Notes: generated from the letters alone by a model not told the origin. A stretch of 64,000 bases of DNA from a virus (IMGVR_UViG_3300010965_000001:96001-160000), one strand, 5' to 3'. Counted from the first letter of the stretch, positions 6,726 through 51,580 are shown. Numbers and translations are program-made.

Positions 6726-6736
6726 GTATTTCCTTC

Positions 6737-11360: not shown

Positions 11361-11368
11361 TATAAATA
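11361..11368 (-). promoter_or_regulatory. Putative late promoter TATTTATA for the T9SS cargo gene
   Basis: Exact octamer about 47 nt upstream of the ATG, in the gene's orientation. Confidence 0.55.
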
Positions 11369-11394
11369 TACAAAGAATAAACTTCTGTAAATAG

Positions 11395-11428
11395 TTAGAA
11401 CTTTCTAATGAACATTAGAAGTTTCTAA
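11395..11428. repeat. Near-perfect 16-bp inverted repeat
   Basis: TTAGAACTTTCTAATG-AA-CATTAGAAGTTTCTAA, overlapping the HNH gene stop codon. Confidence 0.7.
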
Positions 11429-13883: not shown

Positions 13884-13914
13884 ATAATTTATTTCTCCTT
13901 CTTATGTTTGATTG

Positions 13915-15048
13915 TTATTTTGTAATTCCAGCCAATTTTTGGAAACGTGCTGCTAACTCTGTTCCTTCGTTAATAACTGACTTTTGGACAGTTGCTACAC
14001 TTGGACGTGTTGAACCTACTGTGCGTGATGCCATTGACTCAACAATCTTATGTGCCGAATTTGACTTAGGTGCTGCCTGTTTCATGCCTGTGAATGCTTC
14101 TTCTAACGTCGAATAAATGAGTTTGCACTCTTTCAACGTAATAGCGCGGTCAAGCGTTTCAATCACACGTAACTTCTGTGATTCATTCATTGAATGATTC
14201 TTGAAAAGTTTGTTTGTGAATAAAAGTTTAGCGTTCAAAAGGTTTACTTCGTTAAGTTTGCTACGTAAAAACACGATAACATTGCGGTGTTCTTTGAGGC
14301 TCTTCTTAACTTCATTTAATTCATTTGATGAAGGTGATGCTTCGTATTCATTCTTGAGTTCTTTGATAAGTTCTTCAAGATTGACTTCCTCTTCCATCTC
14401 TGCTTCATCACCTTCCTGTGCGATTTCTTCCTTTACTGCTGTGTAGGTAAGACCTGTCTTCTTCTTTGCGAATTGACTTCCAGCCTTCTCAACACCCTTA
14501 ACTGCATTTTTTTCTGCCTTGTTAGCACCAGTTGTATTCGAAGTTGTTAAATAATCTGCGGCTTCCGAAAGTGATGCTTCTTCTTCAAGTGCACGGACGA
14601 TTGAATCAAGTGAGAATTCATCAAGTTCTTCAGGCTCTTCTTCACCTTCTGCACCAAACTCATCACCACCATCTTCAGCTGGTTCTTCTTCGAAATCCAT
14701 ATCATCACCAACACCACCTTCTGCTGCTGCAGGAGTAAGTGTTACTGTACCACTGATATTGAATTGCTCTTCACCGCCACCCATTTCCTCTTCGCCGAAC
14801 TCTTCACCTTCTGGTGCGCCAAACTCTTCTTCACCAGCTGTATCTGCGCCAAACTCTTCTCCGCCTTCTTCACCACCACCAAACTCATCTTCTTCTTCGC
14901 CATCAACTTCATTTTGAAGAGTTGCGTTGAGCATTGATTGTAATTTAGGTGCGAATGCTTCTTCAAGAGCGGCTTTTGCGTTTGCCATTGCGGTCTCACG
15001 GACGGCTTTAGCATCTGCGATAGCCTCTCGTAAAAGGTCATCTTTCAT
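13915..15048 (-). CDS. gp22: Prohead core scaffold protein
   Basis: Directly upstream of the capsid gene; LLREAIADAKAVRETA..NAKAALEEAF, a very acidic middle, LNEVNLLNAKLLFTNKLF, RFQKLAGI. Confidence 0.75.
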   Translation of the reverse strand: MKDDLLREAIADAKAVRETAMANAKAALEEAFAPKLQSMLNATLQNEVDGEEEDEFGGGEEGGEEFGADTAGEEEFGAPEGEEFGEEEMGGGEEQFNISGTVTLTPAAAEGGVGDDMDFEEEPAEDGGDEFGAEGEEEPEELDEFSLDSIVRALEEEASLSEAADYLTTSNTTGANKAEKNAVKGVEKAGSQFAKKKTGLTYTAVKEEIAQEGDEAEMEEEVNLEELIKELKNEYEASPSSNELNEVKKSLKEHRNVIVFLRSKLNEVNLLNAKLLFTNKLFKNHSMNESQKLRVIETLDRAITLKECKLIYSTLEEAFTGMKQAAPKSNSAHKIVESMASRTVGSTRPSVATVQKSVINEGTELAARFQKLAGITK

Positions 15049-15082
15049 ATTGTTTCTCCTTTAATATTGTATTTAGGGAATC

Positions 15083-15224
15083 TTAACTTATTGAGAAGTT
15101 AAATAGAAGTGTAATATTTTTTTGCAAACCCCATATATGGTAGGCATGGGGTATTTAATATAAGTATAAACAAATTTCGGAAACGAGCAATTTATTTAAA
15201 AATATTTTGCCTGTTTCCGAAATT
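15083..15224 (-). promoter_or_regulatory. Structured intergenic leader of the scaffold-capsid operon
   Basis: Perfect 12-bp inverted repeat (15173-15184 / 15213-15224), a TACTTATA promoter variant (15159-15166), and hairpins at 15128-15152 and 15083-15102. Confidence 0.55.
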
Positions 15225-15231
15225 ATGTTAA

Positions 15232-15447
15232 TTAGTATTTCTCTTTTGCTTTTGCCTCTGCCGTTTCATATTCATTACGTCTGATTGATGAAATGTGTTT
15301 ACGTCTCTTTTTTGCCGAAGGTTTTTCAAATTCACGATGAAGTTCAAATTCTTCTAATACCTTAAAGTTCTTCATCTTACGTTTGAAATCTTTAAGTGCG
15401 AATTCTAAATTACCATTCTTAACTGCGACTACGATGTTTGTTGCCAT
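15232..15447 (-). CDS. rpsU: Phage-encoded ribosomal protein bS21
   Basis: IVVAVKNGNLEFALKDFKRKMK..VLEEFELHREFEKPSAKKRRK matches the S21 pattern; 71 aa and basic. Confidence 0.88.
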   Translation of the reverse strand: MATNIVVAVKNGNLEFALKDFKRKMKNFKVLEEFELHREFEKPSAKKRRKHISSIRRNEYETAEAKAKEKY

Positions 15448-15473
15448 AACTATTTACCCTTTATGTTGTGTGT

Positions 15474-16121
15474 TTAATATTCTTTTTTAACAGATGGTTT
15501 AGGTGCCTGTTGCATCTTTCCCTTCTTTGCTTGATTTACTGCCGCGGCCGCTTCTTCATGTGACATTCCTTGCTTCGTTCGTAATTCATAATACTTTGAA
15601 CCTGCATGTGTATTCAATGGTTCACGTGCTTCATTCAAATCATCTTCGGTGTTTGTAACTTCCGCCTGTTTGTGTTTACGATAGTATGCTTCCTCTTCTA
15701 TCCCAACGGGACTTTCGTCCATTCCCATCGCTTCCATCTGTTCATCTGGAACATCGAAGTAACGATTTAAGATAACACCCATATCCTCATAGAGAGTTAA
15801 CATTCTCTGTTGGAGTGCCTGTGCTTCACCAGCGACTTTGGCAAACTCTTTAGCATATGTTTTAAGTTCTTTTGTATTACGTTTGATGGTAATATTATCG
15901 AACCATGTATCACTCTTTGATACTAAATAGTGTTCAGCGTTCTGCGCAAGGGAGTCAAAATATTGTGCAATCTGCTTGTATTTACCTAAGTTATATAGTA
16001 TTTTGCCAAGAGATTTAAACTTCGTAATCTGCTTGTCAAAATTACCTTTAACCTGCTCAATATTAACTTGTGGCTGGTCTTGCTTGTCCTTTATTTGTTC
16101 GTACATTTCTTTAAGTTTCAC
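15474..16121 (-). CDS. Probable head core protein
   Basis: Leader MKLKEMYEQ; helical WFDNITIKRNTKELK..LYEDMGVILNRYF; lies in the head cluster. Confidence 0.5.
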   Translation of the reverse strand: MKLKEMYEQIKDKQDQPQVNIEQVKGNFDKQITKFKSLGKILYNLGKYKQIAQYFDSLAQNAEHYLVSKSDTWFDNITIKRNTKELKTYAKEFAKVAGEAQALQQRMLTLYEDMGVILNRYFDVPDEQMEAMGMDESPVGIEEEAYYRKHKQAEVTNTEDDLNEAREPLNTHAGSKYYELRTKQGMSHEEAAAAVNQAKKGKMQQAPKPSVKKEY

Positions 16122-16122
16122 G

Positions 16123-16986
16123 TTATTCTCCCATTATGTGTTTTATGGATTGCTGAACCGCTTCTCTAATTTCTTGATTTGTTACTTTTGGTGATGGTCT
16201 TGTTGGTAAAATCGACTGCTTTGGTTCTGCATTTACTTCAGGTTCTGCACCGAAATCTTCTTCACCTTCGGGTGCTCCTTCGTCATTACCGATGATTTCC
16301 AACGTTACGGAACGATTTAAGAATGCACCACCTGTTAAATGCTTTAAGTCCACTCTTGAAATAGATGAACCTTTAACACCAAATTTCAGATATGACATTC
16401 TATGACCACTTGATACATCAACTAATGAGACTTTAATCGAATCTTGAATAAGATGAAAATCACCTTCTGCAAGTTTCAATCCTTGATTCTTTGCTAACAC
16501 ATTTGTAATATAATTTGTTGTTTCTTCATCGAAGTTGAAGTTCAATACCACCCGTGGTTGATTGTCTTCTATTTCAACTTCAATTTCACCAAATGTGATT
16601 TTTGCTTCTCTTGGTGCATCACCCTGTTCTGACAAGAGTTGTGCATCTTCTGTTAAGTTGTATCGTTCGAAAAATTCGACCAATTGACCAGCAAGTTCAA
16701 TACGTTCATTCTTAGGGAACATTTCATTCCATAAATATTTGCGAACTGTCATTTCCGCTATGTATTTCTTCGCTGCGAACTCAACAATCGACATAATATT
16801 ATTCTTTGCTCCTCTGTTAGAGTAGTTTTCCTTCATAACTTGTGAGCGTAAATGTTTGAATGACGGAACCACCTTCTGATTGAATGTCTGCCAATCCTTA
16901 AAGATATACTCTTTTAAGGTTTGAATGCCAATCTTATCTTCGGCTGGAATCTCTTTTCGTTCATTTAAGATGTCAGTAAGTTTCAT
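16123..16986 (-). CDS. Probable head core protein
   Basis: Leader MKLTDILNE; internal LTE and LSE sites; acidic tail GAPEGEEDFG. Confidence 0.45.
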   Translation of the reverse strand: MKLTDILNERKEIPAEDKIGIQTLKEYIFKDWQTFNQKVVPSFKHLRSQVMKENYSNRGAKNNIMSIVEFAAKKYIAEMTVRKYLWNEMFPKNERIELAGQLVEFFERYNLTEDAQLLSEQGDAPREAKITFGEIEVEIEDNQPRVVLNFNFDEETTNYITNVLAKNQGLKLAEGDFHLIQDSIKVSLVDVSSGHRMSYLKFGVKGSSISRVDLKHLTGGAFLNRSVTLEIIGNDEGAPEGEEDFGAEPEVNAEPKQSILPTRPSPKVTNQEIREAVQQSIKHIMGE

Positions 16987-17002
16987 TATTTATTCCTTTT
17001 TA

Positions 17003-17785
17003 TTAAAATCCGCTTTTAAGTTGTGACGCGTACGAACGTGCTTCCGCATAACTATTATTGGTATCTATTTCTCTCCGTTTTCCACCATTTGTATTACTAT
17101 CTCTCCATCGTTCAAACTCTTCAAGTGGTTTGGCATATGGTGAATTTGATGGGAATAATACGGCTGTTTTAACTGTATCTCCGTCTACCATGATTACCTC
17201 ATATTTATAATCACCATCTACTTCATTAACTGTATTCTTTTTAAGATATGCACGATTTATTTTTGCCGCTGGCAACGTTGACTGTCGCTGTAATGTTTTT
17301 TTGATTTCCATTGCATGTTGGAGATTGTCTGCGAAATCAATTTCACGTTCTTCACCTTCTGGTGCCGCCTTCTTCCAATTAAGGAACTCAAAATATGGTT
17401 TACCATAAGCACCGTCTGATGGATACAATATAGCCAACTTAGACAGCATTCCATTATATGATATAGCCCTAAACATTCGTTGTGGTTTTCCTGCTTCTTG
17501 AACAGGTGCAGTTTTCATCTGTTGTAAAATTGCTTTTGCTTCATTATAGTCTTTTGCAAACAAAAGTTTACGTCCTTGACCACCGTTCTTCTGTGACCAA
17601 TTTATATAATTTGCATATGGAAATCCACCAGCACCTTCGTATCCTTCTGGATATGCTACTAAAACTTCAGTATCACCAACTTTTCCTTTTGATGCAACAT
17701 ACTTGGTGTTGTATTGGTCATTTACTGATGGAGTGTATTCCTCTGTAAATTTATCAAAATTTTCTCTAAGTAAATGAAAGTTCAC
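17003..17785 (-). CDS. Hypothetical protein with three tandem ~55-aa repeats
   Basis: Three copies of (V/A)xx(Y/F)PxxxxxxxPxxx(Y/F)xxW...R..(L/I)....N/Y.xA, separated by VQE and VNE. Confidence 0.55.
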   Translation of the reverse strand: MNFHLLRENFDKFTEEYTPSVNDQYNTKYVASKGKVGDTEVLVAYPEGYEGAGGFPYANYINWSQKNGGQGRKLLFAKDYNEAKAILQQMKTAPVQEAGKPQRMFRAISYNGMLSKLAILYPSDGAYGKPYFEFLNWKKAAPEGEEREIDFADNLQHAMEIKKTLQRQSTLPAAKINRAYLKKNTVNEVDGDYKYEVIMVDGDTVKTAVLFPSNSPYAKPLEEFERWRDSNTNGGKRREIDTNNSYAEARSYASQLKSGF

Positions 17786-17786
17786 A

Positions 17787-18401
17787 TTATTCTCCCGTTA
17801 AAATTTCTGTAATAATCTTGTTAATGCGTGCATACTTGCCAAGTTGTTTATCCATTACCAAATCCACACCTTCATTCATACGATTACTTGGATGCATGAA
17901 TGCTCCTTGAGTAGAAGGATTTGATACAAAATCAAATGCGATAAGTTCAAAGTCATCTTGAACGATGTTGTTATTTGATTCGTCCATTTTAACTGAGCCT
18001 AATCCTCTTGAACTGATACCTAACTTAATTCCTGCTCTGAATAATTCTTTTAAAATGTTTCCAGAAGGTGTTCCAAGAACTTCAATCTCACCCATTAAGT
18101 TGTTAGAGTCCCACCAAATTCTACGAACATTGTGACTTGCATTATTCAAGTTTACAATGGAACTGTCGGGATGGTCTAACTCACCAAGTGCTCTACGTTC
18201 TTTAACTTGAATTTCGGAATATTTCTTAGATTCACGCATAAGAACTTCTGCAGGATATACTCTTCCATTTTGGTTCTTTGCTTCCGCGCGCTGAAGAACT
18301 CCACCGACTATTAACGGTTTATTCTGTGAGATGCTTTCGTTTACTAATTCGGTTGATACATCGAACAAAATGGTATTTATAAGTAATTGTCTGCCGTCCA
18401 T
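17787..18401 (-). CDS. gp21: Prohead core protease
   Basis: GVLQRAEAKNQNGRVYP, ALGELDHP, GISSRGLGS, FDFVSNPS. Confidence 0.93.
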   Translation of the reverse strand: MDGRQLLINTILFDVSTELVNESISQNKPLIVGGVLQRAEAKNQNGRVYPAEVLMRESKKYSEIQVKERRALGELDHPDSSIVNLNNASHNVRRIWWDSNNLMGEIEVLGTPSGNILKELFRAGIKLGISSRGLGSVKMDESNNNIVQDDFELIAFDFVSNPSTQGAFMHPSNRMNEGVDLVMDKQLGKYARINKIITEILTGE

Positions 18402-19498
18402 TATTTCATCCTTTTCTTAATCACCTGTTTAGGTGCTGCTGGTTGAATTGCGAATTTATCGGAAAGTTTATCCAAATAATTCATCATCTTTACTAATTCC
18501 TGTGCTAACCCTCTATCACCACCACGTGCGTACTTTGTCGCCAACTCTTTTGTTGTTGCACGAAGTGCTTCAAGTTCTTCCAATTTGCTTTCTTCGGGTT
18601 TAATATCTTCGTAAATTTCACGAATCATATGTGAAAGTTCCGCAATTTCTTCAGGTTTTGGTGGAGCCTCCTCCTCACCCTCTGGAGGTAATTCCTCGCC
18701 TTCTGCCCCCGTTGGTGCACCTTCTGCCCCTGGTTCTGCGGGCGGGAGTGGTTGTCCGTCAGGTCCGACTTCTCCACCTTCTGGTGGCATTTCTTCGCCC
18801 GTTGGAGGCATCGTCATTCCGCCTCCCCCGCCGCCACCCGTCGAACCTCCACTACCCCCTCCAACATCACCCATATCTCCACTTGGTGCGGGAGGTGCGG
18901 CACCTGCCTCAGCACCGCCATCAATGTTGTCATTTGGTTGACCACTCATTGGGTCTTCAATTTTTGCTAAGTTATAATAGACAACATCCAAAATATCTTT
19001 ACGTAAGAAATATTCGTCCGCTTTCATATTCACACCAGTTTCCTTCGTGAAGTCACGTGCGGCTCGTTGGATGAAATCTTGATATACTTTGAATGCATCT
19101 TCCTTCGTAAAGGTTCCGTCTGCCTGCATTCTGTCAAACAATTCTTTAATATCTTTCATGTCTTCTTTGTAACGTTCACTTCCCATCACAAAGTCCATCA
19201 ATTCTTTTGCTTGGTCAGACATTTTAATATCAAAGTCTACTTTGTTAATAACATCCTCAAATAGTTTACGACGAGTTTCGGAAATTGCACCTTTACGTTT
19301 CGGAGGTGCAAGTTTCATACCTAACACTGTTCCAATTTTCTTACGTCTTGCCTCACCCTTGGAAGTGCCACCAGTAAATGCGTTTGGAGTTTGAATAATG
19401 TCCGTCCCAGTTCCAATTGTACCAGATGACGCAGTAGAATTCATCTCTTGCATTATAGCAGTTCTAATAAGTTTACGGAGTTCGTGAAGTTTAGCCAT
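18401..19498 (-). CDS. Probable head core protein with a long Pro/Gly/Glu low-complexity linker
   Basis: Leader MAKLHELRKLIRTAIMQEM; GC-rich low-complexity segment at about 18650-18950; the stop overlaps the gp21 start. Confidence 0.5.
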   Translation of the reverse strand: MAKLHELRKLIRTAIMQEMNSTASSGTIGTGTDIIQTPNAFTGGTSKGEARRKKIGTVLGMKLAPPKRKGAISETRRKLFEDVINKVDFDIKMSDQAKELMDFVMGSERYKEDMKDIKELFDRMQADGTFTKEDAFKVYQDFIQRAARDFTKETGVNMKADEYFLRKDILDVVYYNLAKIEDPMSGQPNDNIDGGAEAGAAPPAPSGDMGDVGGGSGGSTGGGGGGGMTMPPTGEEMPPEGGEVGPDGQPLPPAEPGAEGAPTGAEGEELPPEGEEEAPPKPEEIAELSHMIREIYEDIKPEESKLEELEALRATTKELATKYARGGDRGLAQELVKMMNYLDKLSDKFAIQPAAPKQVIKKRMK

Positions 19499-20354
19499 TT
19501 TTCATTCCTTTAAATTCTTTGATAAGTTCGTAATACCGTAAAAGTGAAAGAACATGCTCATCTTTTACAAATTTAATTGTGTCAAATTTATTGAGCATCG
19601 AAACTGTTTCTTGTAATTTGATACGTGTGACGGTATCATCCACTTTACCAAGAAATTGCTTTAACTGTTTCTTGATTCCAGGAATTTGTTGTTTCATGTA
19701 CTCCAATAATTTTGAATTATTTGATGAGTTGTAGATGTATTCTTTTAATACTTTCCTTTGATTCTCATCAAGTTGTGAACTGTATTTACGATTGAATTTA
19801 TCAACGAGCAGTCGATAGGTAATCAATCTAATGTCAGTATTCTCTTTCTCATACTGTTCAAGAATTGTTTCCGTATCTTTCTTTGTTTCTTTGTTAGCAA
19901 CGATATGCTCTATGATTGTAAATCTTTCACGTATGATTTGTTCAGGTGTTGCGGTAATATCATTCTCAAATAACTTATAGATACTCGCATATAACTTGTA
20001 ATTATCAAGTTTGGTATCAAAGAATTTTTCAATATCATAAGATTCTTTAATTTTTTTGATGACTTCGTACTTTTCTTTTCTAAGTTGTTTTTCACTGATG
20101 GTACTACGTGAACGGAGAACTTCTTCCAATAATGCATTTGCCTTCATCTCAGTAGAGAATCGATTACGAATCAAAATTTGATATAATTCCTGCTCTTTAC
20201 CGAGAGCGGTCTTCTTATTAAAGAATTCCTTAATAATAGAAAGTGACGGTGAATTTTCATTCCCGTTGACTGTATCACTTGTTAGTTTTCGTAACAAGAT
20301 TTCAAAGACTATCGCTGGATTTTTTATCTTGCTGTGTTTAATCATATTATTCAT
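19491..20354 (-). CDS. Helical hypothetical protein of the head cluster
   Basis: IKHSKIKNPAIVFEILLRKLTSD, YKLYASIYKLFE; lies between the portal and the protease. Confidence 0.55.
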   Translation of the reverse strand: MNNMIKHSKIKNPAIVFEILLRKLTSDTVNGNENSPSLSIIKEFFNKKTALGKEQELYQILIRNRFSTEMKANALLEEVLRSRSTISEKQLRKEKYEVIKKIKESYDIEKFFDTKLDNYKLYASIYKLFENDITATPEQIIRERFTIIEHIVANKETKKDTETILEQYEKENTDIRLITYRLLVDKFNRKYSSQLDENQRKVLKEYIYNSSNNSKLLEYMKQQIPGIKKQLKQFLGKVDDTVTRIKLQETVSMLNKFDTIKFVKDEHVLSLLRYYELIKEFKGMKNG

Positions 20355-20992
20355 ATTGTTAGTCTAATAAATTTACAATTAAGAAAATTCTCAATTTCTG
20401 TTTGTCTACGTATATCACACTCACGTAATTTTCCACAAGAATCAAAATGATGTGATTCATCTATTTCAATCACAACATTTTTTTCTTTATCATATCCATC
20501 AACCCAATAACAAAGTTCTTTAATATGATGTTCACCACCATTGAGTGCATGCTGAAAATTATATCCATTTTCTTTTCCATATTGTTCTATCAATTTACAT
20601 GCGTTTGGATTAAAATTTGGAAAAACTACAATATCTTCACCATGCTCAGAATAAAGTTTTTTAATTCTACCGATTGTTGCTAATCGTAAATTTTTTCTCC
20701 ATTCATCCGTCCGAATAATACCTTTTCTTGATTTTCCAATATTATTTTCACTAATAGCACAACTATTACATTTTTTGTTATCTCTTATAGAATATACAAG
20801 AGAATATTTATCTTTATATTCCATAATAGAATTACAGGTTGGACACACTTTTTCAAATGGTGAAGTTATATTGGAATATTTAGTTGGCCCCTTAATACGA
20901 GAATCGTCCAATTTTGTTAATCCTTTATTCCATGCCACCTGTTGCCCAATAACATTTTTATTCCACGGAATATTACCTTTTTTAACTGCCAT
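20351..20992 (-). CDS. Homing endonuclease-like protein, second paralogue
   Basis: PWNK repeats, CPTCN..CNSC, FPNFNPNAC..YNFQHALNGGE..YWVDGYDKEKNVVIEIDE.H; TATTTATG upstream at 21022-21029. Confidence 0.7.
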   Translation of the reverse strand: MAVKKGNIPWNKNVIGQQVAWNKGLTKLDDSRIKGPTKYSNITSPFEKVCPTCNSIMEYKDKYSLVYSIRDNKKCNSCAISENNIGKSRKGIIRTDEWRKNLRLATIGRIKKLYSEHGEDIVVFPNFNPNACKLIEQYGKENGYNFQHALNGGEHHIKELCYWVDGYDKEKNVVIEIDESHHFDSCGKLRECDIRRQTEIENFLNCKFIRLTI

Positions 20993-23019: not shown

Positions 23020-23811
23020 TTACTCCAATATTTCTATAAATTCACAATTTAAAAAATTAGTAATTTCCAATTTTCGTTTTTTATCACACTCTTCTTTTCT
23101 TTTGTGGTGTTTTTCGTAATATTCAATAACCACATTCTTTTCTTTGTCATATCCATCTACAAAATATCCAAGTTCTTTGATATGATATTCTCCACCGTTA
23201 AGTGCATGCTGAAAGTTATAACCATGTTCTTTACCATATTGCTCTATAATTTCACATGCTTTTGGATTGAAATTTGGAAATTTAACATTATATTTTTCGG
23301 CGTGTGCAATTGATGCCAATCTTAATTTTTTCCGTGTTTCATCTGATGGAACATTGCCTATGTGCGATATACTCAAATTTTTCTTATGTTCATCAGAAAA
23401 AGTTGTTCCAAGTTGAGAAATACTTATCTTATGTTTAGTTTCTTCCGAACAAGTATGAAAATGTTTTCCAGTCTGAGATATACTCATTTTTTTCTTAGAT
23501 TCTTCAGTATGTACCTTTCCATACATCGGGGCATCAATACCTTTATATTTTCCAAATTTAGATTTTGATATTTTGTCTATAGTTTCTTGTGGCATTCCAT
23601 TTTCAAATTGTTTTTTAGATGCTTCTCTGATTTTTTCCTTAGTTTCTTCTGACCGATGTTTTCCAAAATGTGGATGATTTTCTTTATTCATAAAACGTAT
23701 TTTAGCTGAACAAGATTTACAATTAAAATTATTTGCAATGGATTGGTCACGTATTTCCATTGATTTATATATTATTGGTTTTCCACACGTAGGACAAAGT
23801 TTTTCAAACAT
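23020..23811 (-). CDS. Homing endonuclease-like protein, third paralogue, with many NUMOD3 repeats
   Basis: CPTCG..CKSC; repeated (H)SEETKxKI; YFVDGYDKEKNVVIEYYE.HH; TATTTATA at 23835-23842. Confidence 0.72.
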   Translation of the reverse strand: MFEKLCPTCGKPIIYKSMEIRDQSIANNFNCKSCSAKIRFMNKENHPHFGKHRSEETKEKIREASKKQFENGMPQETIDKISKSKFGKYKGIDAPMYGKVHTEESKKKMSISQTGKHFHTCSEETKHKISISQLGTTFSDEHKKNLSISHIGNVPSDETRKKLRLASIAHAEKYNVKFPNFNPKACEIIEQYGKEHGYNFQHALNGGEYHIKELGYFVDGYDKEKNVVIEYYEKHHKRKEECDKKRKLEITNFLNCEFIEILE

Positions 23812-23842
23812 TTTTACCTCATTTAGTGTATAGATATAAATA

Positions 23843-25429
23843 TTAGATTAACCAAATTAAATCTTCTTTTTTCCCACCAACTTGCCAATCCCACGCATTA
23901 TTTGATAATGCTTTTGGTACGAATACTGGTTGCACCTTTGTAATGTGTGATAATGCCACTTTTTGTAACTCAATTCCTTCGGTTCTTAAACGAAGTGCCG
24001 TATCTCTAACCCACAATCCAATTGCATATGACATTACTAAGTCATCATTATAACCAGCAATTGCTTCTGCTTTTGCACCGTTAAAGATATAAGTAAAGAG
24101 TTCATCAATTAATCGCTTACTTCTAATAGTTACACTATAATCTCTCATATATGAATCCATTTTAGAGATGATAAGTGGTTTGGTTCGTTGTGTTGTAGAG
24201 AAACCTGCGGTTAATTGTGATTTCTCTTTTAAATCGATTCGTTTATCAAGATTTACTGCGGTATCTACCAATGCCAAATCTTTTGATGCGTAAAATAAGT
24301 TTTGATAATTTCTATCCAATACTTCTTGAATAACTGCCCATCCGATATTTGCATTTTCTATAACAAGAAGTGCGTTGTTGTATTCGGTTGCGACCGTTAC
24401 ACACATGCCGCCGAATTCTTTAGTGCCAATCTTTCCTTTATATTCTGCAACTTGCTCAAGAGTTTCCGCGTCAATTACTTGAATAGCGGAGTAGTCATTT
24501 CCATCACCTCTCGCCACGTCAGCACTTACCATGTATGTGCGTGAATAGTCGGGATACTGCCAAATCCAATATGCACTTTCTATTCCACGTTTTTCCATTG
24601 GTTCTTTAACCATTGTATCCATGTATACCTTGAGTACTTCTGGGGGAACGATACTATTACCAGACGAAATAAAGTCCGCATCACATTCCTGCGCCGCAAG
24701 TTTTGCTCCAAGTTTTACAGTCTGCTTATCTCGCCATGATTGGTCACGCTCGGGATGTACTGTCCAATCCATACGTATTGTGTGGAAGTTATTGACTCCC
24801 GACTCAGCCTCTACCCATGTTCTGTGGAAGAAGTTACCAACACCATTTGGCGTGGAAAGAACAATAACATCTCCACCCGTTGATAATGCAGGTTGTGCAC
24901 CAGTCCAAATATCATCAATCTCATCAATGAACGCCGCTTCGTCAATAATAAGTAATGACAATGCTTCTGAACGACCTGCGTCTGGTGAACTTGAAACGGC
25001 TTTGATTTGTGAACCATTTGTAAAACGGATTGAGAGTTTGTTCTGCTCTACCGTCTGATTCTTTAACCAACTTGGAAGGTTTGATTGCATGACTTGAACC
25101 TTTGTGACAAGGTTCTTTGCGGTATCCTGCTTCGTTGCGATAACAAGAATATTTTTGTCTGCGTTGAAGGTCATCAACCATAATGCGTACGCGGCAACAA
25201 GTGTTGAGATACCCAACTGACGTGACTTTAACACGATATTATAGTTGTTATCTCGTAGTTCGTACAACGCATTCTTTTGGAATGGGTATAGAACGAATGG
25301 AATCTTACCTCTAACTGGATGCTGAATGAAGCAATATTTTGACATGAAGTGGACTGGGTCTGCCACGCACTTCACATATTCTTCATGGATTAGTTGCTTT
25401 ACTGTTTTTTGTGCTGGTGTGTCTGCCAT
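23843..25429 (-). CDS. gp17: Terminase large subunit
   Basis: Walker A region LKSRQLGISTL, Walker B LIIDEAAF, LSTPNG, nuclease motifs SADVARG and NDDLVMS. Confidence 0.95.
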   Translation of the reverse strand: MADTPAQKTVKQLIHEEYVKCVADPVHFMSKYCFIQHPVRGKIPFVLYPFQKNALYELRDNNYNIVLKSRQLGISTLVAAYALWLMTFNADKNILVIATKQDTAKNLVTKVQVMQSNLPSWLKNQTVEQNKLSIRFTNGSQIKAVSSSPDAGRSEALSLLIIDEAAFIDEIDDIWTGAQPALSTGGDVIVLSTPNGVGNFFHRTWVEAESGVNNFHTIRMDWTVHPERDQSWRDKQTVKLGAKLAAQECDADFISSGNSIVPPEVLKVYMDTMVKEPMEKRGIESAYWIWQYPDYSRTYMVSADVARGDGNDYSAIQVIDAETLEQVAEYKGKIGTKEFGGMCVTVATEYNNALLVIENANIGWAVIQEVLDRNYQNLFYASKDLALVDTAVNLDKRIDLKEKSQLTAGFSTTQRTKPLIISKMDSYMRDYSVTIRSKRLIDELFTYIFNGAKAEAIAGYNDDLVMSYAIGLWVRDTALRLRTEGIELQKVALSHITKVQPVFVPKALSNNAWDWQVGGKKEDLIWLI

Positions 25430-26213: not shown

Positions 26214-26786
26214 TTATTGTTGAAATATTTTTGGAAATTTATATCCAAATGCTTTCACGAGTTGACCTGCTACTGCGTTTGCTTCATCTTCTATCTCGCC
26301 GCCAATATCTTGAACTGGTCCTTTTATCTTGTCATTGTCAAGTTGTTGTTTATGAACTAACTCATGTGCAAGACTACGTGCGATGTCGGCGGTATTTCTA
26401 TTTGAACCATACACAACACAATGTGAAGTAGATGGGTCAAATGCCGCCATTGTCTTGAGAGCATAGGAACCTCTATCATTTGTGACTGTGACCCTAACAG
26501 GAGTTGTTATTCCTAAATTCTTTAACGCATACTCTGTGAACTTACGGAGCATACTGAACTTAGTCTTTGCAACATCACCATCATCAGTCTCTAAAAGATA
26601 AGAACATTTACCCTTAACTTCACCAATTGCTGCAGCGGGAGCATCTCCAAGTGATGCATTAACGTGCGCTTCAGCCGACCCGCCTTGAACAAATGGCATG
26701 CGATACCCACTGTTATGTTTCCTAACAATGGGTGGGTGCATGTGTTTCTTTTTCTTTACTTCAGTCAACAATGTCTTTAGTTTCAT
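26214..26786 (-). CDS. Zincin-type metallopeptidase with a head-protein-type leader
   Basis: SLAHELVH (HExxH) with a downstream EDEANAVAG; N-terminus MKLKTLLTE. Confidence 0.7.
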   Translation of the reverse strand: MKLKTLLTEVKKKKHMHPPIVRKHNSGYRMPFVQGGSAEAHVNASLGDAPAAAIGEVKGKCSYLLETDDGDVAKTKFSMLRKFTEYALKNLGITTPVRVTVTNDRGSYALKTMAAFDPSTSHCVVYGSNRNTADIARSLAHELVHKQQLDNDKIKGPVQDIGGEIEDEANAVAGQLVKAFGYKFPKIFQQ

Positions 26787-27100
26787 TATGGTTCCTTTGG
26801 TGCTTCCGCAGGAGGAAGCTGATTCGTTGTATCATTGATTGGTTCTTTTCCTTTTTGCCATACCTTGCCAGCAAAACTGATACCATTTGCAAGTGCATAT
26901 AAGAACAATGTTCCTTGTGCTATGTCAGGCATTATACCATCCTTAAGCGTAACATAGATGAACATCGACCATACAGAAATATTCGACATAACAACTGTAG
27001 TCACAAAAGAAAATCTTGTTGCCGACCAGGAGGTGGCATCTGACACTTCTTGTAACATCGATGACATTTTATTGAATAACGTTTGAATCCACCGTTGCAT
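26786..27100 (-). CDS. Small two-TM membrane protein, holin-like
   Basis: Start reassigned to the ATG at 27100 (SD GGGAG); S-ATRF motif, two hydrophobic helices and a charged tail KVWQKGKE. Confidence 0.5.
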   Translation of the reverse strand: MQRWIQTLFNKMSSMLQEVSDATSWSATRFSFVTTVVMSNISVWSMFIYVTLKDGIMPDIAQGTLFLYALANGISFAGKVWQKGKEPINDTTNQLPPAEAPKEP

Positions 27101-27644
27101 GATACTTCTCCCCGAAGGACTTCTCAAAATCTTCATACATCTGTTTGAGAACATTGTCCATTCGTTCTTTGTAGTGATTCACATCACCCTGTCCTAACTT
27201 CCACGTTTCATACTGTATTGATGCAAGTTGCTCATTTACGACATCAACATTGGTTGTGCCTTCTTCAAGTCGAATTTTTTCTTCTTTGACCTGTTGTTCA
27301 CAATCTCTGATAAACGAACGAATATTTTCTTTCACTTTATTCTTTTCATATTCTTCGTACTTACCAGCAATACGTAATTGAGTTTCCATTTCAATGACAC
27401 AATCGAAACACATATTATGTAACCAATACATCTTATTGTCTAACTTTTTATTCATTACATGCTTACATTTTGGACACCATAAGGGCATTCGTGCAAATTC
27501 CATGAATGATTCTTTCGGTGCTTCTTTTGCTTTCGGACCATCCAACTCAGGAGTCCAACCAAATTGTAATGTGTTTGTATACTTTGTCAAAAATCCATCG
27601 ATTTTCGCTTTAACTCTATCTTGTTCTGTACCTTTACCAGCCAT
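27069..27644 (-). CDS. Zn-ribbon and coiled-coil hypothetical protein
   Basis: Start reassigned to MAGKG at 27644 (SD GAGG); WCPKC...MCFDC. Confidence 0.6.
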   Translation of the reverse strand: MAGKGTEQDRVKAKIDGFLTKYTNTLQFGWTPELDGPKAKEAPKESFMEFARMPLWCPKCKHVMNKKLDNKMYWLHNMCFDCVIEMETQLRIAGKYEEYEKNKVKENIRSFIRDCEQQVKEEKIRLEEGTTNVDVVNEQLASIQYETWKLGQGDVNHYKERMDNVLKQMYEDFEKSFGEKYHATVDSNVIQ

Positions 27645-27660
27645 GTATAACCTCTTCTTT

Positions 27661-30402
27661 TTAGTTTGTATCGTATTGTGCAAGTTCTTGTGGAATTGCA
27701 AATGGTGTTGTTTTCACCGTCTTCACATATTCTTTAAAAATTGCGTCTCTTAATTTTGGAAATTTAAATTGTGGACTCATCATCTTTGTAAACATCGTTT
27801 CAAATGTGCTGACATCTGCATAAGAAATCGGGTCTTTGAATAAATAACGTAACATCTTCTCAGGGTCCGTTTCGATTGTCTTAACATCCAATTTAACACG
27901 TTTACCCTTTGCGTCCATTGTATAAGTTACCAATTGTAATCCATTTTTGAAATCCAATTGATACTTCTGCTTAATTGCAGGGTCTTTTGTATTCATGTTA
28001 ATAACTGCAAAGGCTGATGTTAATAAGTAGTTACGATGTGCTGCTTTCAGCCCTGCTCTTGTACCTTGTGCACCACTCATTACCTTTTCCATCCAAGGGA
28101 CGTTACCAATCATAAAGTCAATCTGAATTGATTCTCCCATGAACTTGTTATGGTCATCTACTACAGGTGCCTTAAATGATATTTGAATCAATCCAGTATT
28201 AATAACCCACACAATGGATGGGTCACTACTTTCCGTAGGTGTCCTGCGTTTGTATTCTTTCAATCCTAACTTATTCATATACTTTCTAAGTGCATCGAAG
28301 AATGTATCCTTGTCAAATGGTTCTTTAAGCCCGATATACTTTGCCATTGCATTAATATCAACTGCAATATCAACGTCATTCATTTCAGGTTTCAAATAAT
28401 TTCCGATGTGTCTGTATTGTAACCCATGCATCTTAATTGAATCGATACAATTTTGAATAGTAGCATCTCTGTATTGGACAGGCATGTTAGGAAGAGGTCC
28501 AAATGATGTACCACCTTCAGTCAATCGTTTCTTTTGAATCTGCTCCATGAGGTTTTTTAATTTCATGTTCTTCCTTTCAGCAATTTGTTTTTTAATATAC
28601 TTGTCCGCCACAGATTCTGGACTTTCGTTCTTTAATAGTTCCAATGCCTTTCCAAGTTTTGTAGATACTAATTGAAAATATTTAATTGTATCTTCCTTCT
28701 TCTTAGGAATCTGAATGTACTTGTCCGCATTTTGGTCAAAGTCTATTTTGATTTTCTGTAAACCATCACTCAACTGAATAAGCAAATCTCTAATTTGAGA
28801 AGGGTTCTGTTTAATCTGTTTACTGATTGAACGGTCTAACATACTAATCTGTTCCATGTAATGCCAATTCAAATTCTTTCGTTTAAGGAATTGACTCTTG
28901 TCGATAACCTTAACCATAGAACCATCGGGTGCTTTGAATACGACACCTTCAATTTCATCACCGAAGTGCGACTTGTAAGTTTGAAGTGCTTTAAGCATTT
29001 CATCCTTATTAGACATTGCGATAGTTTTCACAACATTGAGAATCTTTGTCTTTAATTCTTTTGTTTTTGGTGTTGTTCTGCTGTTAATAATCGTGTCATA
29101 CTTCTGAATGATTTTTGCCAACTTCTCAACGTGCTTAAATTTAACTGCACCAACCCCAACTTTAGGAGTTGCTGTAAACTTTGTTTCTCCCTGAGAGGAA
29201 AGATTTGCTGCGAATTTTTCGACTTGTGCACGGTCTAATCCTTTTCCATCTGCGATAACATGGATGATAATGAATACACCTTTACCAATCTTCTCTTGAC
29301 TGTATAATGTTACGTTGGAATCGTATGATGCAATTCCTTCACCCTTAACAGATACAGTGTTAACTTTATGTCCAACTGCGTTACCAACGGCACCCAATAT
29401 ATTGATATTTTGTAGTCGTTCGTGGAATAAACGGAAATCATCGAACATGAAATTTTCTGCATAATCGGTTGATTGACGTGCTTTTGTATTTCGTGATGAA
29501 GTATAGAATCCTTCTTCATCTACACCAAATTCCATATCCTTCCCATCAACCTTTTCCGTTACTTCAAATCCTTGATTATTTTCGTTCCATGCTTTTAAGA
29601 AGTTGAGTAATTCCGCGGGAGAAAGGTCTTCAAAGTGCATCAACCCTCCTCTGCGTTCTTCTTTTAATGGTTCTTCCGAAGGATTTAATTTATTTCCTAA
29701 TTCATCCACTGATACGGATTCATCATTATATTTCAAGTCCAACGATTCACGTAAATTTTTAGTCAACATATCAAACAACTTTTTAACGGTTGTTGGGTCT
29801 ACGTTTGGATAATTTGTTGCAAAGTGTTTGTAATCTTTATTTACGATGTCTTTACGTAAAATTGTCGCACTAATTGGTTGACCACTCAATCCATCGGTTC
29901 TACGTCCGTAGACGATTGGTTGTGGCACAGGAAGAAGGATTGCCGTAATACCTTGTGGAGTATGTTTTCCATCACGAGTACCAACAGTCTTATATTTACC
30001 ATTTATAGTTGTAACAAACTCATTACTTCTCTTTTGGTCATTCTCTTTATCACTTGCACCAAGAGCAATCTTCCCAACCATATCTTGTGGAAGTGCTAAC
30101 ACATGCTCATATGCCGTTTGCACAGGTGATTCATATGCAGATGCCATAACTTTGATTTTTGGATTAAGTTTCAATGTCTTCAAAACCATCAAACTTTGTT
30201 TCTGCGTAACACCTTCACGTTCTTTTGGACTTACAAATACTAAGACCTGTGAAACTTCAGGATGTGCCGCATATTGATTTGCAATATGTAAGTGACCACC
30301 ATGCGGAGGTTTATATCCGCCGGGAAGCAATACTGTAATATCTCCTTGTTGCTCAAAGAGGAATGGTGCTACCATTTTCCGTGTAAGTTGTTCTATATTC
30401 AT
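27661..30402 (-). CDS. Three-domain enzyme: HIGH-type nucleotidyltransferase, ligase-like (KxDG) domain and Pol-beta-like nucleotidyltransferase
   Basis: PGGYKPPHGGH...ISATILR; HFEDL..VTEKVDG...IEGVVFK..VKVID; LTEGG...IGN..PEMNDVDIAVD...QIDFM. Confidence 0.7.
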   Translation of the reverse strand: MNIEQLTRKMVAPFLFEQQGDITVLLPGGYKPPHGGHLHIANQYAAHPEVSQVLVFVSPKEREGVTQKQSLMVLKTLKLNPKIKVMASAYESPVQTAYEHVLALPQDMVGKIALGASDKENDQKRSNEFVTTINGKYKTVGTRDGKHTPQGITAILLPVPQPIVYGRRTDGLSGQPISATILRKDIVNKDYKHFATNYPNVDPTTVKKLFDMLTKNLRESLDLKYNDESVSVDELGNKLNPSEEPLKEERRGGLMHFEDLSPAELLNFLKAWNENNQGFEVTEKVDGKDMEFGVDEEGFYTSSRNTKARQSTDYAENFMFDDFRLFHERLQNINILGAVGNAVGHKVNTVSVKGEGIASYDSNVTLYSQEKIGKGVFIIIHVIADGKGLDRAQVEKFAANLSSQGETKFTATPKVGVGAVKFKHVEKLAKIIQKYDTIINSRTTPKTKELKTKILNVVKTIAMSNKDEMLKALQTYKSHFGDEIEGVVFKAPDGSMVKVIDKSQFLKRKNLNWHYMEQISMLDRSISKQIKQNPSQIRDLLIQLSDGLQKIKIDFDQNADKYIQIPKKKEDTIKYFQLVSTKLGKALELLKNESPESVADKYIKKQIAERKNMKLKNLMEQIQKKRLTEGGTSFGPLPNMPVQYRDATIQNCIDSIKMHGLQYRHIGNYLKPEMNDVDIAVDINAMAKYIGLKEPFDKDTFFDALRKYMNKLGLKEYKRRTPTESSDPSIVWVINTGLIQISFKAPVVDDHNKFMGESIQIDFMIGNVPWMEKVMSGAQGTRAGLKAAHRNYLLTSAFAVINMNTKDPAIKQKYQLDFKNGLQLVTYTMDAKGKRVKLDVKTIETDPEKMLRYLFKDPISYADVSTFETMFTKMMSPQFKFPKLRDAIFKEYVKTVKTTPFAIPQELAQYDTN

Positions 30403-30462
30403 ATGTATAAATATTAAGATTAATTGGATTTAATGTCGATTTTTACATTTAATACTCATTTA

Positions 30463-33956: not shown

Positions 33957-36900
33957 TTAGAAATTCTGTGCTGACGCACCATATGTAAGTGAACCAACAC
34001 ATATAAATGTGTAAATATCTGTTTTACTTGTCGTAGCTGACGCTGTTGTTTGTGTTGGAACCGTGCCGCCCTTCCAAGTAATCGTTGCAGGCCACGATGC
34101 TGTAAATGCACTTGCCGAATTTGTCAGTATCACATTTAATGTTTGACCACTTGATGTGTTGCTAAATGTAAGTGTAGAATGTTGCGTAAGTTTTCGTGTA
34201 AACGTATTCCCAAGTGACCAATCGACATCAACGGCTGACATAGATACGGTTGACCCTATGACAGATTTTGATATAATTAAACTACCAGCGATTGCTTGAT
34301 TACCACTAAATGCATTAGAAGTTAACGTAGCAAACGAACCAGTTTGGTCACTCTTAACAAAGAATGACGCACTTACTACACTTAGTGGATTACCAAGTGA
34401 ACCATCTCCAGATAAAGTCGCATCCGTGACAACTGCTGATAGATAATTTCCAGCACTAACCGTTGTCTGACTGTATCTACTTCCAAGTAATTTATCAGTT
34501 TGAATTACACTCCAGTCATTTGCTCCAGTTTCCCGTATAATCACTCTCGCAACAAATACAAATTCTGGTATCATCGTGGATATTGCCGTAGTATTCAAAC
34601 TTGATGGAGTCAATGCTTGAATTGTCGATAGTGTAGTACTTTGTGTTTGCCCGTGGAACCATACATATCTGTATTTTTGTGACTCGGTATCAGATGTAAC
34701 GGGAACTGCAACTAACCATATCGTAGCATATGCGTTGTTTGGTAATGTCGTTCTTTGCCATACCGTGCCAGTATATTGATTGTACGTTGCACTAATTCCA
34801 CTAACAGGTACGAATTCTGCCGATTCGGTCTGGAATGAACCAGTTCCATTTACACCACTTCCAGTCAAATAGAATAACGTATAAGAGCCAGATAATGCAG
34901 TTAGATTGGTTGCAAGGTCTTCATCTTTGATGGTGGCGATTGACATGGTTGGTCTACGAAGTGAAGGTGTAACGGAATTAAGCGTTAAACCACTCACATC
35001 TGCACCAGAACTTAGATACGTTCCAACTGTAGTATGAATTGCTTCATGTACTTGCCATTGCATTAAACCATGAACTTCACGTAGTGCAAACTTATCAGTT
35101 GAAGAATAACGTACCACTGCTATTTGTAATTTATCAAACGTCCACGGAGTTTGTGACCATGTATATGAAGCACCATCATATGATAAGAACCACGTTCCTT
35201 CTGTTGTATCATGTATAGATGATGTCCATCCACTAACCAATTCCTGTATAACTTGACCTTGCCAGTATGCTACTACCGTTCCAGTCAATACTATCTGACG
35301 TGAACCACTATATGTGACTATTATTGATGTAGGATTAACAAATCCAGTTGGGTCTTTGGTTACTTCGTTCATTGTATAGTATGATGCACTTTGTGCCATA
35401 ATTGCATATGATGAAGTACCAAGTAACGACCCAGTTATTCCCGCCGCAACATTTAATGAACCAGTAACCTGTACTATGTCTCCATAAACACGCATCGGAT
35501 AACTAAATACTCCCGCAGTTGCTACACCAAACCTCATAAATCCATTATTATCTACACCATTCCTAAACGTACCAATAGAACCAATAAAATTTTCTGTTGA
35601 ACCACTCTGTAACGTAAATGTCATACTGGAACCGAACCCGTTTACCATTGTATTGTTGGTATGTGCTCTTAATGTTAAAGTTCCTGTTTCACTGTTACCA
35701 GCCGTGTTGGCACGTTGTACCCTCAAAGGTGGGAACGTATCACTAACAAAGTATCCCTTGCCAGCCACATTCAAAGAACCACTGATAATTTCATTCCCAA
35801 CAAATATGTTAGAACCAGTTGTTGCGAATACACTTGTGTCGATTGTGGGTGCCCAACTTGCAGATACTGCATATGATGCACTTTCTGCCAATCCCAACAA
35901 TATGCTTGCGGTTGCAGCATATGATGCAGATACTACTAAGCCCGCACCAGTTGAAACTACAATCTCACCAGTAAATCTTCCATCGGGAATTTCAGATACT
36001 AAAATATCTACCGTAGTTGGACTTGTCTGCCGAATAGTATCTACACCAACTTGCTCATAATATCCACTGCTACTGTCCCACAACGATATTAATAATTCTT
36101 TTGAATTTAAATTATGTACAAATGATTGAGTGTAATATGGTGATGCCAATCCCCACGACGAAGATAAAAATGTTGCTGTATACGATGACCCAGGAAATCC
36201 TGCTCCACCACTTCCACCGTTAAGTGCATATGATGCTGTAAGTGCATACGATGCTGAAATAGATGAACCACCAGGTGCCCACGATGCGCTTAACGCATAT
36301 GATGAACTCAATACCAACATAGAACTTGTTGATACTGCTGATAAAAATCCCGTATGACCTGAACTTGCATAATCTAAATTAGTCAAGTCACTATGTGCAG
36401 TTACTCCAGTTGCTGAAAAATGAATATCAAATGCACTATCAACTTGTATTGCAGTTGATACACCTTCTTGGACAATTATACGTCCTACCAATATTCCCAT
36501 AGATGCTATTCCAGGAGGAATAGAAGATGGTGGTTGTGCTGCCTGTGCATCTGATAGTTTATTGGCGTTCAATGTTCCTAATAAAACACATGCATTGTTA
36601 TAAATAGAACTAGTGGGTCCACTTTGAATGTGGCGATATACCCAATGAGTATTATAATTATTATTACTTAACGATGCCGTAGTTATACCATTGTCATATG
36701 ATGATGAATTGAACGTACTTCCAGTAACATGCGTCCAAGCACTTGCGGAATGATAATATGTGTAAATTTTCTCTGTGTTAGGTAATATTTCTAATAATGT
36801 ATGACGAACAACACCCAACCACACTTTACCTTCTGTAACTGTAACATATGAACCAGTAGTCGATACTATTAATCCACTCTCTCTCGCGTATCGTTGAGTC

Positions 36901-42731: not shown

Positions 42732-42800
42732 TATAAATATAATTGTTTTGAGTTAATCCTCTATTTATTATAAGGAATTATAATCAATCTAATATAAATA
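42732..42800. promoter_or_regulatory. Overlapping divergent promoter cluster
   Basis: TATTTATA on the minus strand at 42732-42739 and 42793-42800; TATTTATT on the plus strand at 42762-42769. Confidence 0.5.
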
Positions 42801-43002: not shown

Positions 43003-43626
43003 ATGAATACTACAAAACAAAAAATATATTGTTCAAATTGCAAAATAGAGATAACTGGAAGAGGAAAACACGGTAAATGTAAAAAATGTGTATTTCTCGG
43101 TGAAAATAATCCAAATTATGGAAATCCATCTGAACGAAAAAGTCCATATAAAGGTACAGTTGGAATTTTACACGCCAACACAATTTTTCCATCAAAATCT
43201 GGAAAAAATAATCCAATGTATGGTGTAACGAGAACTGGAAAATTGTCTGGATTTTTTGGAAAACGACATACAGAAGAAACTAAAAAGAAAAAACGAATTG
43301 CAATGATTGAATATATTAAAAAGAAAAAAGGTGGAATATCACCAAATTACAATATAAATTCAATTAAAATAATAGAACAATATGGTAAAGAACATGGATA
43401 TAATTTTCAGCATGCGGAAAATGGTGGAGAATTTTATATTAAAGAACTTGGATATTGGGTAGATGGATATGATAAAGAAAAGAATGTCATAATTGAATAT
43501 TATGAACCTTACCATAAATCAAAAAAAGAAAGAGATGAAATTCGTAAAAACGAAATAACATCTCTTCTTAATTGTACATTCATTGAATTAAAATCTTGGG
43601 AATTATTACAAGAAAGTGATACTTGA
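43003..43626 (+). CDS. Homing endonuclease-like protein, fourth paralogue
   Basis: CSNC..CKKC, GENNPNYG / GKNNPMYG / FFGKRHTEETK, YWVDGYDKEKNVIIEYYE..H; overlaps the 3' end of the SbcD-SbcC gene by 21 nt. Confidence 0.72.
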   Translation: MNTTKQKIYCSNCKIEITGRGKHGKCKKCVFLGENNPNYGNPSERKSPYKGTVGILHANTIFPSKSGKNNPMYGVTRTGKLSGFFGKRHTEETKKKKRIAMIEYIKKKKGGISPNYNINSIKIIEQYGKEHGYNFQHAENGGEFYIKELGYWVDGYDKEKNVIIEYYEPYHKSKKERDEIRKNEITSLLNCTFIELKSWELLQESDT

Positions 43627-49670: not shown

Positions 49671-49718
49671 CCTCTATTATTATGTAACTATAAATATCAA
49701 CGTAATAGATTTAATGGC

Positions 49719-51511: not shown

Positions 51512-51580
51512 TTGAATCTCCTTGTTGTGATACTTGTTATTTTATATAAATATAAGAAAAAAATAAATTATACACGTTTT

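Follow-up and report, generated by a model that had tools for sequence, protein, structure and literature searches.

Organization of the locus and domains of P0001

The window analyzed here is a stretch of 64,000 nt, corresponding to bases 96001–160000 of a 210,562-bp virus record from IMG/VR (IMGVR_UViG_3300010965_000001) that is rated complete by CheckV and that derives from a T4-like phage. On its minus strand, and as a single copy in the phage genome, there is an open reading frame (ORF; positions 27661–30402, stop codon included) for a product of 913 aa, designated here P0001, exactly as stated in an earlier note made from the DNA sequence. By prediction, P0001 is made up of three domains for nucleotidyl transfer, designated N, L and C, all of which have their catalytic motifs intact; we consider it probable that the protein is a beads-on-a-string fusion of three enzymes that would constitute one nucleic acid end-repair module. 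The parts of the gene are as follows:

30352–30402, minus strand: N-terminal leader of 17 residues ending in LFE (residues 1–17), a candidate capsid-targeting or propeptide segment (function inferred only)
29767–30351, minus strand: N domain (residues ~18–212), a HIGH (cytidylyltransferase-fold) nucleotidyltransferase similar to phosphopantetheine adenylyltransferase (PPAT) and NMN adenylyltransferase (NMNAT)
29647–29766, minus strand: linker 1 (residues 213–252), acidic, with LRE (217–219) and LKE (246–248)
28594–29646, minus strand: L domain (residues 253–603), an ATP-type RNA ligase
28510–28593, minus strand: linker 2 (residues 604–631), with IAE, LME and LTE
28564–28566, minus strand: in-frame ATG (M613) within linker 2, preceded by the Shine-Dalgarno-like sequence AAAGGAAG at 28571–28578
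27664–28509, minus strand: C domain (residues 632–913), a minimal Pol X-like (Pol-beta fold) nucleotidyltransferase, with a conserved EGG (629–631) just before it

The earlier note had proposed three enzymes on the basis of a series of motifs, and most of these are located where they had been placed: PGGYKPPHGGH (residues 27–37, positions 30292–30324), TEKVDG (residues 282–287, positions 29542–29559), EGVVFK (residues 485–490) and VKVID (residues 497–501) all lie in one frame, as does GN...DVDIAVD (residues 667–682, positions ~28357–28404); QIDF (residues 760–763, positions 28114–28125) is in the same frame too, but somewhat outside the range noted for it. The three-enzyme proposal held up, with the N domain identified by profile comparison to the PDB, the L domain by Pfam and by its fold, and the C domain by fold searches; the third enzyme, described as Pol-beta-like, is predicted to have that fold and can be refined to Pol X-like. 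Likewise, the Lys, Asp and His residues of the catalytic motifs were invariant in the homologs.

As a whole, P0001 did not match any family in PHROGs, and a single-sequence search of the PDB produced no meaningful match. In a tblastn comparison against cultured phages the N domain alone was matched, in Lak megaphages. With HMMER, a complete search of 1.84 billion representatives retrieved 759 homologs, and related loci were located with a closer, 8-sequence alignment of the C domain. Profiles of the L and C domains had no significant matches to PDB sequences, and fold searches were therefore needed for both.

The N domain is a HIGH-type nucleotidyltransferase

A profile from 74 N-domain homologs matched PPAT in the PDB (E 7.6e-7) and, more weakly, NMN/NaMN adenylyltransferases (3e-3). 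These matches span about the first 75 residues, which are the nucleotide-binding half of the domain, and, because they are confined to this shared half, the acceptor is not readable from the sequence. The signature motifs are HGGH (residues 34–37), after the first strand, and ISATILR (177–183), with H37 and R183 invariant and S178 nearly invariant in the 74 homologs. The Pfam model PF01467 matched the N domain of P0001 weakly (13.7 bits, with a cut-off of 21) and its relatives with values of up to E 7e-15; the nearest Atlas clusters of this domain are all viral.

These similarities allow for a reading in which the N domain is an NMNAT that would rebuild NAD+ against NAD-depleting host defenses, its fusion to L and C serving for co-delivery or co-expression and having no mechanistic meaning. 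The HIGH and ISxSxxR motifs are consistent with it, NMNATs are among the PDB profile matches, fusions to P-loop kinases (AAA_33/Zeta_toxin), arranged as in NadR, occur among the relatives of the N domain, and a cyanophage homolog was called NMNAT-like by its authors (PMC10665884). Conversely, the best PDB matches are to PPAT and cover those first ~75 residues only, the motif is GG[YF]KPxHxGH and not the usual FDP or FQP, and N is persistently paired with ligase-like domains across hundreds of phages, which suggests a shared pathway and not a chance fusion. We regard this reading as improbable.

The L domain has the fold of an RNA ligase

The Pfam family PF09414 (RNA_ligase; curated cut-off of 27 bits) was matched by the whole P0001 with 29.5 bits and by the L domain with 32.6 bits, as well as by 20 of 30 L-domain homologs. 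An AlphaFold model of the domain, from an alignment of these 30 sequences, had a pLDDT of 93.2 and retrieved with Foldseek T4 Rnl2 as the top match (E 8e-7), followed by Naegleria RNA ligase, with REL1 also matched; its adenylyltransferase fold is thus nearest to RNA ligases, and not to DNA ligases or capping enzymes. The core comprises K284 of KVDG (motif I), E355 (motif III), E485-G486 (motif IV) and K498 (motif V, with the atypical spacing KVIDK), and it is followed by an all-helical C-terminal subdomain (residues ~501–603). Residues E283, K284, D286, G287, E485 and G486 are invariant among the 30 homologs, and E355 and K498 are nearly so (90% or more).

Two other identities were considered for this domain and discarded. 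Capping enzymes were absent from the best-ranked fold matches, and the C-terminal subdomain is made up of helices instead of being an OB fold. As to a replicative DNA ligase, the genome encodes elsewhere a separate canonical ATP-dependent one (PF01068, E 2e-20; positions 34741–35304 of the phage genome, G000:C1).

The C domain is Pol X-like

The model of the C domain was also confident (pLDDT 92.8), and family X polymerases ranked first in two independent fold searches. The first 50 PDB matches obtained with Foldseek were all family X polymerases, and AlphaFold DB agreed. The palm motifs are G667-N668, with N in place of the G/S of hG[GS], and the aspartates D676, D678 and D762; G667 and the three aspartates are invariant in 50 C-domain homologs. 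The domain, of ~285 residues, lacks the 8-kDa lyase and fingers (helix-hairpin-helix) domains, and nothing N-terminal to the palm matches them, a trait in which it is similar to the minimal Pol X of African swine fever virus. A Pfam scan of the C domain of P0001 and the 50 homologs returned no family, with one distant relative only matching NTP_transf_2 and Polbeta. Similarly, there was no match to PF10127 (RlaP) with P0001 at E up to 1, or with the 50 homologs at E up to 0.01. In most relatives the C domain is genetically linked to an RNA ligase domain, either fused or adjacent. Since the fold-search scores are modest, we call it Pol X-like and not a member of family X; it is a Pol X-like family not previously described and without a Pfam model.

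Homologs and architecture of the module

Each of the three domains also occurs as a stand-alone protein, and L-C fusions are present in at least 15 proteins. The order N-L-C is found in P0001, in P0002 and in the product of locus L014, while L012/13 has the order L-C-N. Four other proteins (P0005-7 and P0027) show the order N-C-L, with a divergent C domain (hhalign, 97.8%) and, in the last position, a sister ligase-like domain, DUF6267, which in P0005-7 aligns with L at 96.6%. At a further set of loci (L018-L025), L and C each have a gene of their own; the two genes are adjacent, with 9 nt between them, and a stop and a new start lie exactly at the position of linker 2. In P0001, the M613 ATG and the preceding AAAGGAAG at the L/C junction suggest that the genes were fused recently or that there is a nested start. 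The repeated co-occurrence of the domains, which are found alone, adjacent, or fused in several orders, indicates a functional module, and the permuted orders and split genes point to tethered but independent enzymes of one pathway.

The DUF6267 family (PF19782), with a KWDG motif and a weak alignment to the first part of the RNA-ligase domain, is probably an unrecognized covalent nucleotidyltransferase. We found matches to it in 398 records of T4-like cyanophages and pelagiphages and, among the matches listed and in S-PM2, HTVC008M and S-SZBM1, the DUF6267 gene adjoins or is fused to a "cytidyltransferase" gene. The latter (S-SZBM1_140) is a distant homolog of the N domain (hhalign probability of 86%) and the DUF6267 gene a distant homolog of the L domain (82%). 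Two such loci are:

12390–14671 in S-SZBM1 (L010): DUF6267 locus
5989–7768 in S-PM2 (L006): DUF6267 locus, with the gene apparently split in this older record

The synteny of the related genes follows two patterns. In at least 14 loci the gene is directly upstream of the terminase, portal, protease and capsid genes, overlapping the portal gene by 8 nt in one of them (L034), and in five to six loci it is beside the baseplate wedge gene. In the phage encoding P0002 and in the cyanophages, on the other hand, the genes are in replication or nucleotide-metabolism modules, that is, in non-structural ones; the P0002 locus also contains genes for an RNase T-like protein, a NUDIX protein, a CCA-adding enzyme and an AAA_33 kinase.

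Comparison with known systems

The closest described system is the pair formed by an RNA ligase and RlaP in RNA repair. In the RlaP (PF10127) pairs, known from bacteria and jumbo phages, there is a genetic coupling between an ATP-dependent RNA ligase and a nucleotidyltransferase of the Pol-beta fold, as in P0001, and damaged RNA 3′ ends receive one or two NMPs from RlaP before they are ligated (PMC7824862; bioRxiv 10.64898/2025.12.29.696909). P0001 differs from these pairs in having a third, HIGH-type enzyme, fused or adjacent, in a nucleotidyltransferase that is not PF10127 by hidden Markov models and that is most like family X polymerases, with a possible thumb-like subdomain, and in the location of its gene within the virion structural module.

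The L domain shares with T4 RNA ligase 2, NgrRnl (Rnl5) and REL1 the nucleotidyltransferase core and the KxDG, GE, EG and K motifs, although sequence identity is 12–18% and motif V is K-V-I-D-K and not KxK. T4 Rnl2 also has a helical C-terminal subdomain, not necessarily homologous to that of the L domain, whereas in comparison with NgrRnl the L domain lacks an OB or N-terminal domain. In the editosome, REL ligases together with a Pol-beta-fold TUTase fill and seal nicked RNA duplexes. Another two-enzyme set, formed by Pol X and the ligase of African swine fever virus (ASFV), resembles the C domain in its minimal palm (and possibly its thumb), its Asp triad and its G[GS]-type motif (GN in P0001), as well as in the pairing with a ligase for short-patch repair; in P0001, however, the partner ligase is of the RNA type and, with respect to family X, the C domain has no Pfam Pol X match, carries an additional conserved motif, hxEGGN, at its N-terminal side, and is extended at its C terminus.

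The "cytidylyltransferase"/NMNAT-like and DUF6267 genes of cyanomyoviruses, being distant homologs of the N and ligase domains, are also alike, but they encode separate or two-domain proteins, are in the replication module, and do not include a Pol X-like domain. In agreement with this, the product of S-SZBM1_139, a virion-detected neighbor of the cytidylyltransferase, did not match the C domain. The literature assigns no function to this cyanophage pair (PMC9146016), and a search for DUF6267, for "cytitidyltransferase" and for the three-enzyme combination in phage retrieved no publications.

A candidate fill-and-seal module for RNA ends

In the reading that we prefer, the ligase and polymerase pair would be the core of the module, working as a fill-and-seal unit whose substrates, order of action and timing we infer. 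The Pol X-like domain would add one or a few nucleotides at a 3′-OH, by templated gap filling or by short terminal addition, and the Rnl2/Rnl5/REL1-like ligase would seal the 3′-OH/5′-phosphate nick by way of lysyl-AMP (on K284) and AppN. The likeliest substrate would be damaged RNA in a duplex context, such as the stems and loops of tRNAs; RNA is favored because the ligase groups with RNA ligases, because a canonical DNA ligase is already encoded by the phage, and because of the phage's heavy investment in tRNAs (34 tRNA genes plus a tmRNA in a block at 170373–189916 of G000:C1). The N domain would use an NTP as donor of AMP, or of a different NMP, for an acceptor that bears a phosphate; our best guess is NMN, to give NAD+, or else another adenylylated cofactor or end that would support repair. 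As a precedent, RNA ligases work with RlaP Pol-beta nucleotidyltransferases that restore lost nucleotides prior to ligation (PMC7824862; bioRxiv 10.64898/2025.12.29.696909).

Several considerations weigh against this reading. We searched the phage genome for LigA, RtcB, an AAA_33/Pnk-type kinase, a phosphatase and a class II CCA-adding enzyme and found none of them; the genome has no recognizable end-healing enzymes, and a 3′-OH/5′-P ligase alone would therefore be unable to mend the 2′,3′-cyclic-P/5′-OH ends produced by most anticodon nucleases. A participation of the N domain in repair is conjectural; its substrate could be a small molecule with no relation to L and C. The activities of all members of the module are predicted. 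Finally, in cyanophages the related genes are surrounded by genes for DNA replication and recombination, and the nearest folds of the C domain are DNA polymerases.

A serious rival, which we nevertheless judge unlikely, is that the module would be a DNA repair kit, by analogy to ASFV Pol X and its ligase or to bacterial LigD: the Pol X-like domain would fill short DNA gaps, possibly with ribonucleotides, and the Rnl2-like ligase would seal them, in a patch repair of the base-excision or end-joining style. Known Rnl2-like ligases prefer an RNA 3′-OH strand and, reportedly from work of the Shuman laboratory, the polymerase of bacterial LigD adds ribonucleotides that are preferred by the LigD ligase. 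The location of the DUF6267 and cytidylyltransferase genes between those for DNA polymerase, UvsX, primase-helicase and ribonucleotide reductase, in cyanophages and one pelagiphage, is in favor of a role on DNA. However, this phage already has a canonical DNA ligase, the C domain does not have the 8-kDa lyase and fingers, and the scores of the fold searches, being modest, do not settle the substrate.

Possible packaging and processing of P0001

The earlier note went further and proposed that the protein is packed into the head, cut into three enzymes, and delivered at injection. In such a scheme the leader would target P0001 to the prohead, where the S77 protease would cut after the Glu of [LI]xE sites, both at the leader and within the two linkers. 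The enzymes so released would be injected with the DNA and act within the first seconds of infection, mending phage or host RNA or DNA, or restoring cofactors, before phage gene expression. This idea concerns the location and processing of the protein, and is compatible with the fill-and-seal enzymology preferred above.

The phage does encode components of a T4-type head: a large terminase (23843–25429), a T4-type portal (PF07230, Portal_T4, E 2e-71), a Peptidase_S77 (gp21-type) prohead protease (17787–18401, E 1.5e-30) and a Gp23-type capsid protein (12231–13883, E 7.8e-77). Moreover, proteins in or beside the head module, five of them between portal and capsid (13915–19498) and another at 26214–26786, begin with leaders of 6–9 residues ending in LxE (MKDDLLRE, MKLTDILNE, VNFHLLRE, MKLKTLLTE, MAKLHE), which match the capsid-targeting and processing rule of T4 (PMC9026906). 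Residues 613–620 of P0001 (MKLKNLME) are of the same form and could be the relic of such a capsid-targeting leader; the N-terminal leader is longer than those of the head module, and the internal sequence fits better. The N-terminal leader is conserved in the nearest relative, P0011, and a leader of ~15 aa with [LI]xE is present in 31 of the 74 N-domain homologs (~40%), but the others start at the first strand, and about half of the homologs have no leader.

All four L-x-E sites named in the earlier note are present (LFE 15–17, LRE 217–219, LKE 246–248 and LTE 627–629). In total, P0001 contains eight [LI]xE sites, compared to 8.1 +/- 2.5 in shuffled sequences, so that there is no overall enrichment, which counts against processing. 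Their placement is nonetheless uneven, in support of it: six of the eight are in the leader and the two linkers, where 2.0 were expected (P ~0.003, computed with within-segment composition and with boundaries chosen post hoc), and two are in the domain cores, with 6.2 expected (P ~0.04). Homologs speak in both directions. Of 15 fused relatives, 11 have an LxEG sequence immediately before the ligase domain, and the start of stand-alone ligases coincides exactly with the end of this sequence, although related "E-FGK" N-termini suggest that the Glu of LxEG may belong to the ligase domain. At the other junction, the hxEGGN motif spans LTE-GG and is kept in 41 of 50 C-domain homologs, including a stand-alone protein with the start Met alone before the motif; its retention in stand-alone proteins indicates that it is at least partly intrinsic to the domain. 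Besides, homologs carry many LxE sites inside their domain cores, and the junctions of the L-C-N relative from L012 carry F/M-x-E or nothing, with no [LI]xE.

The position of the related genes next to those for the head or the baseplate wedge agrees with packaging, whereas that of P0002 and of the cyanophage genes in non-structural modules does not. Likewise, an NMNAT-like/cytidylyltransferase protein is reported in the virion proteomes of four cyanomyoviruses: S-SZBM1_140, with two peptides (PMC9146016), and ORF154 of S-CREM2, with three, S-CBWM1 and S-SCSM1 being also cited (PMC10665884). Furthermore, S-SZBM1_140 starts with MRFRQFIIE-A, a leader like the capsid-targeting sequences of T4. 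On the negative side, these detections consist of few peptides and, according to their authors, carry-over of abundant proteins is possible; also, a term search for the DUF6267 neighbor, S-SZBM1_141, did not find it in the text or in Table 1 of PMC9146016.

With regard to known injected proteins, this system is similar to Alt and the internal proteins of T4, which are targeted by a capsid-targeting sequence, processed by gp21 and injected, in its T4-type head, S77 protease and leaders ending in LxE, and in the detection of related enzymes in cyanophage virions; for P0001 itself, packaging and cleavage are putative. The substrates of T4 gp21 are trimmed at their ends, and we know of none that is cut into separate enzymes. 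P0001 also resembles the "polyvalent proteins" (Iyer et al., 2017) in joining several enzymes in one protein encoded among virion genes, but it has no hallmark domain of these (MuF, zincin peptidase, others), an HExxH protein being encoded three genes downstream.

The polyprotein proposal of the earlier note is thus supported in part only. The packaging of P0001 in the head has, in our view, a little less than an even chance; its cleavage into three enzymes is doubtful, and so is the full sequence of events, from prohead targeting to the early action of a head-packaged repair polyprotein. Overall, a virion polyprotein is plausible, but not established.

Neighboring genes and a repeated upstream element

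The P0001 gene is flanked by BNR-repeat fibre-like genes, one of them for a giant protein of 2922 aa, and by the terminase/head block, all of them on a single strand. A sequence element, ATATTTATA, appears 15 times in the window, whereas shuffling predicts 1.8 copies; the minus strand carries nearly all of them, just upstream of gene starts, including those of the giant fibre and tail genes, and one of them ends 3 nt before the ATG of P0001. It is probably a promoter (late?) or initiation element of the phage. Its presence at both the P0001 gene and the tail and fibre genes would fit a regulation in common with structural genes, and the gene would probably be expressed late, alongside virion genes. 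These elements and the genes that follow P0001 are:

30406–30414, minus strand: ATATTTATA upstream of P0001, a candidate phage promoter or initiation element
42732–42740, 49689–49697, 51545–51553, 23835–23843 and 11361–11369, mostly minus strand: examples of other ATATTTATA copies
27072–27644, minus strand: downstream neighbor, a zinc-ribbon protein of 191 aa with four invariant Cys (phrog_4182), conserved as a neighbor in the family and a possible partner
26214–26786, minus strand: HExxH protein of 190 aa with the leader MKLKTLLTE, three genes downstream of P0001

Homologs of the zinc-ribbon protein adjoin genes of the N-C-L, N'-L + C and X-C types (L005, L018-L022, L025 and L026); the complex predicted for the C domain and the zinc-ribbon neighbor scored 0.19 against a mark of 0.32, which is evidence neither way. 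The HExxH protein did not match any Pfam or PHROG family, and a homolog (E 6e-11) adjoins the L-C-N fusion gene in L012/L013 (9488–9916), which are distant contigs of 183–253 kb.

Five paralogous NUMOD3/homing-endonuclease-like genes are dispersed in the structural region (1914–2630, 11425–12114, 20351–20992, 23020–23811 and 43003–43626); one is between the terminase and portal genes, and a homolog is directly upstream of P0002 in L004. Genes for an SbcC-like nuclease subunit (43606–46746) and a DNA primase (46743–47666) lie between the fibre and baseplate blocks, which means that the structural region is interrupted by replication/repair genes.

Significance

The module represented by P0001 is a variation on the known repair theme of an RNA ligase with a Pol-beta nucleotidyltransferase. 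With respect to the known pairs, what is new is the HIGH-type adenylyltransferase, an undescribed Pol X-like family, and the spread of the module in uncultured T4-like and jumbo phages, as reflected by its 759 homologs. It also links the unexplained "cytidylyltransferase" and DUF6267 genes of cyanophages to ligase-type chemistry. If P0001 were indeed packaged and processed, these phages would inject a ready-made nucleic acid repair kit, a new class of early counter-defense that would be pre-loaded in the virion and of a kind not yet described for any phage.

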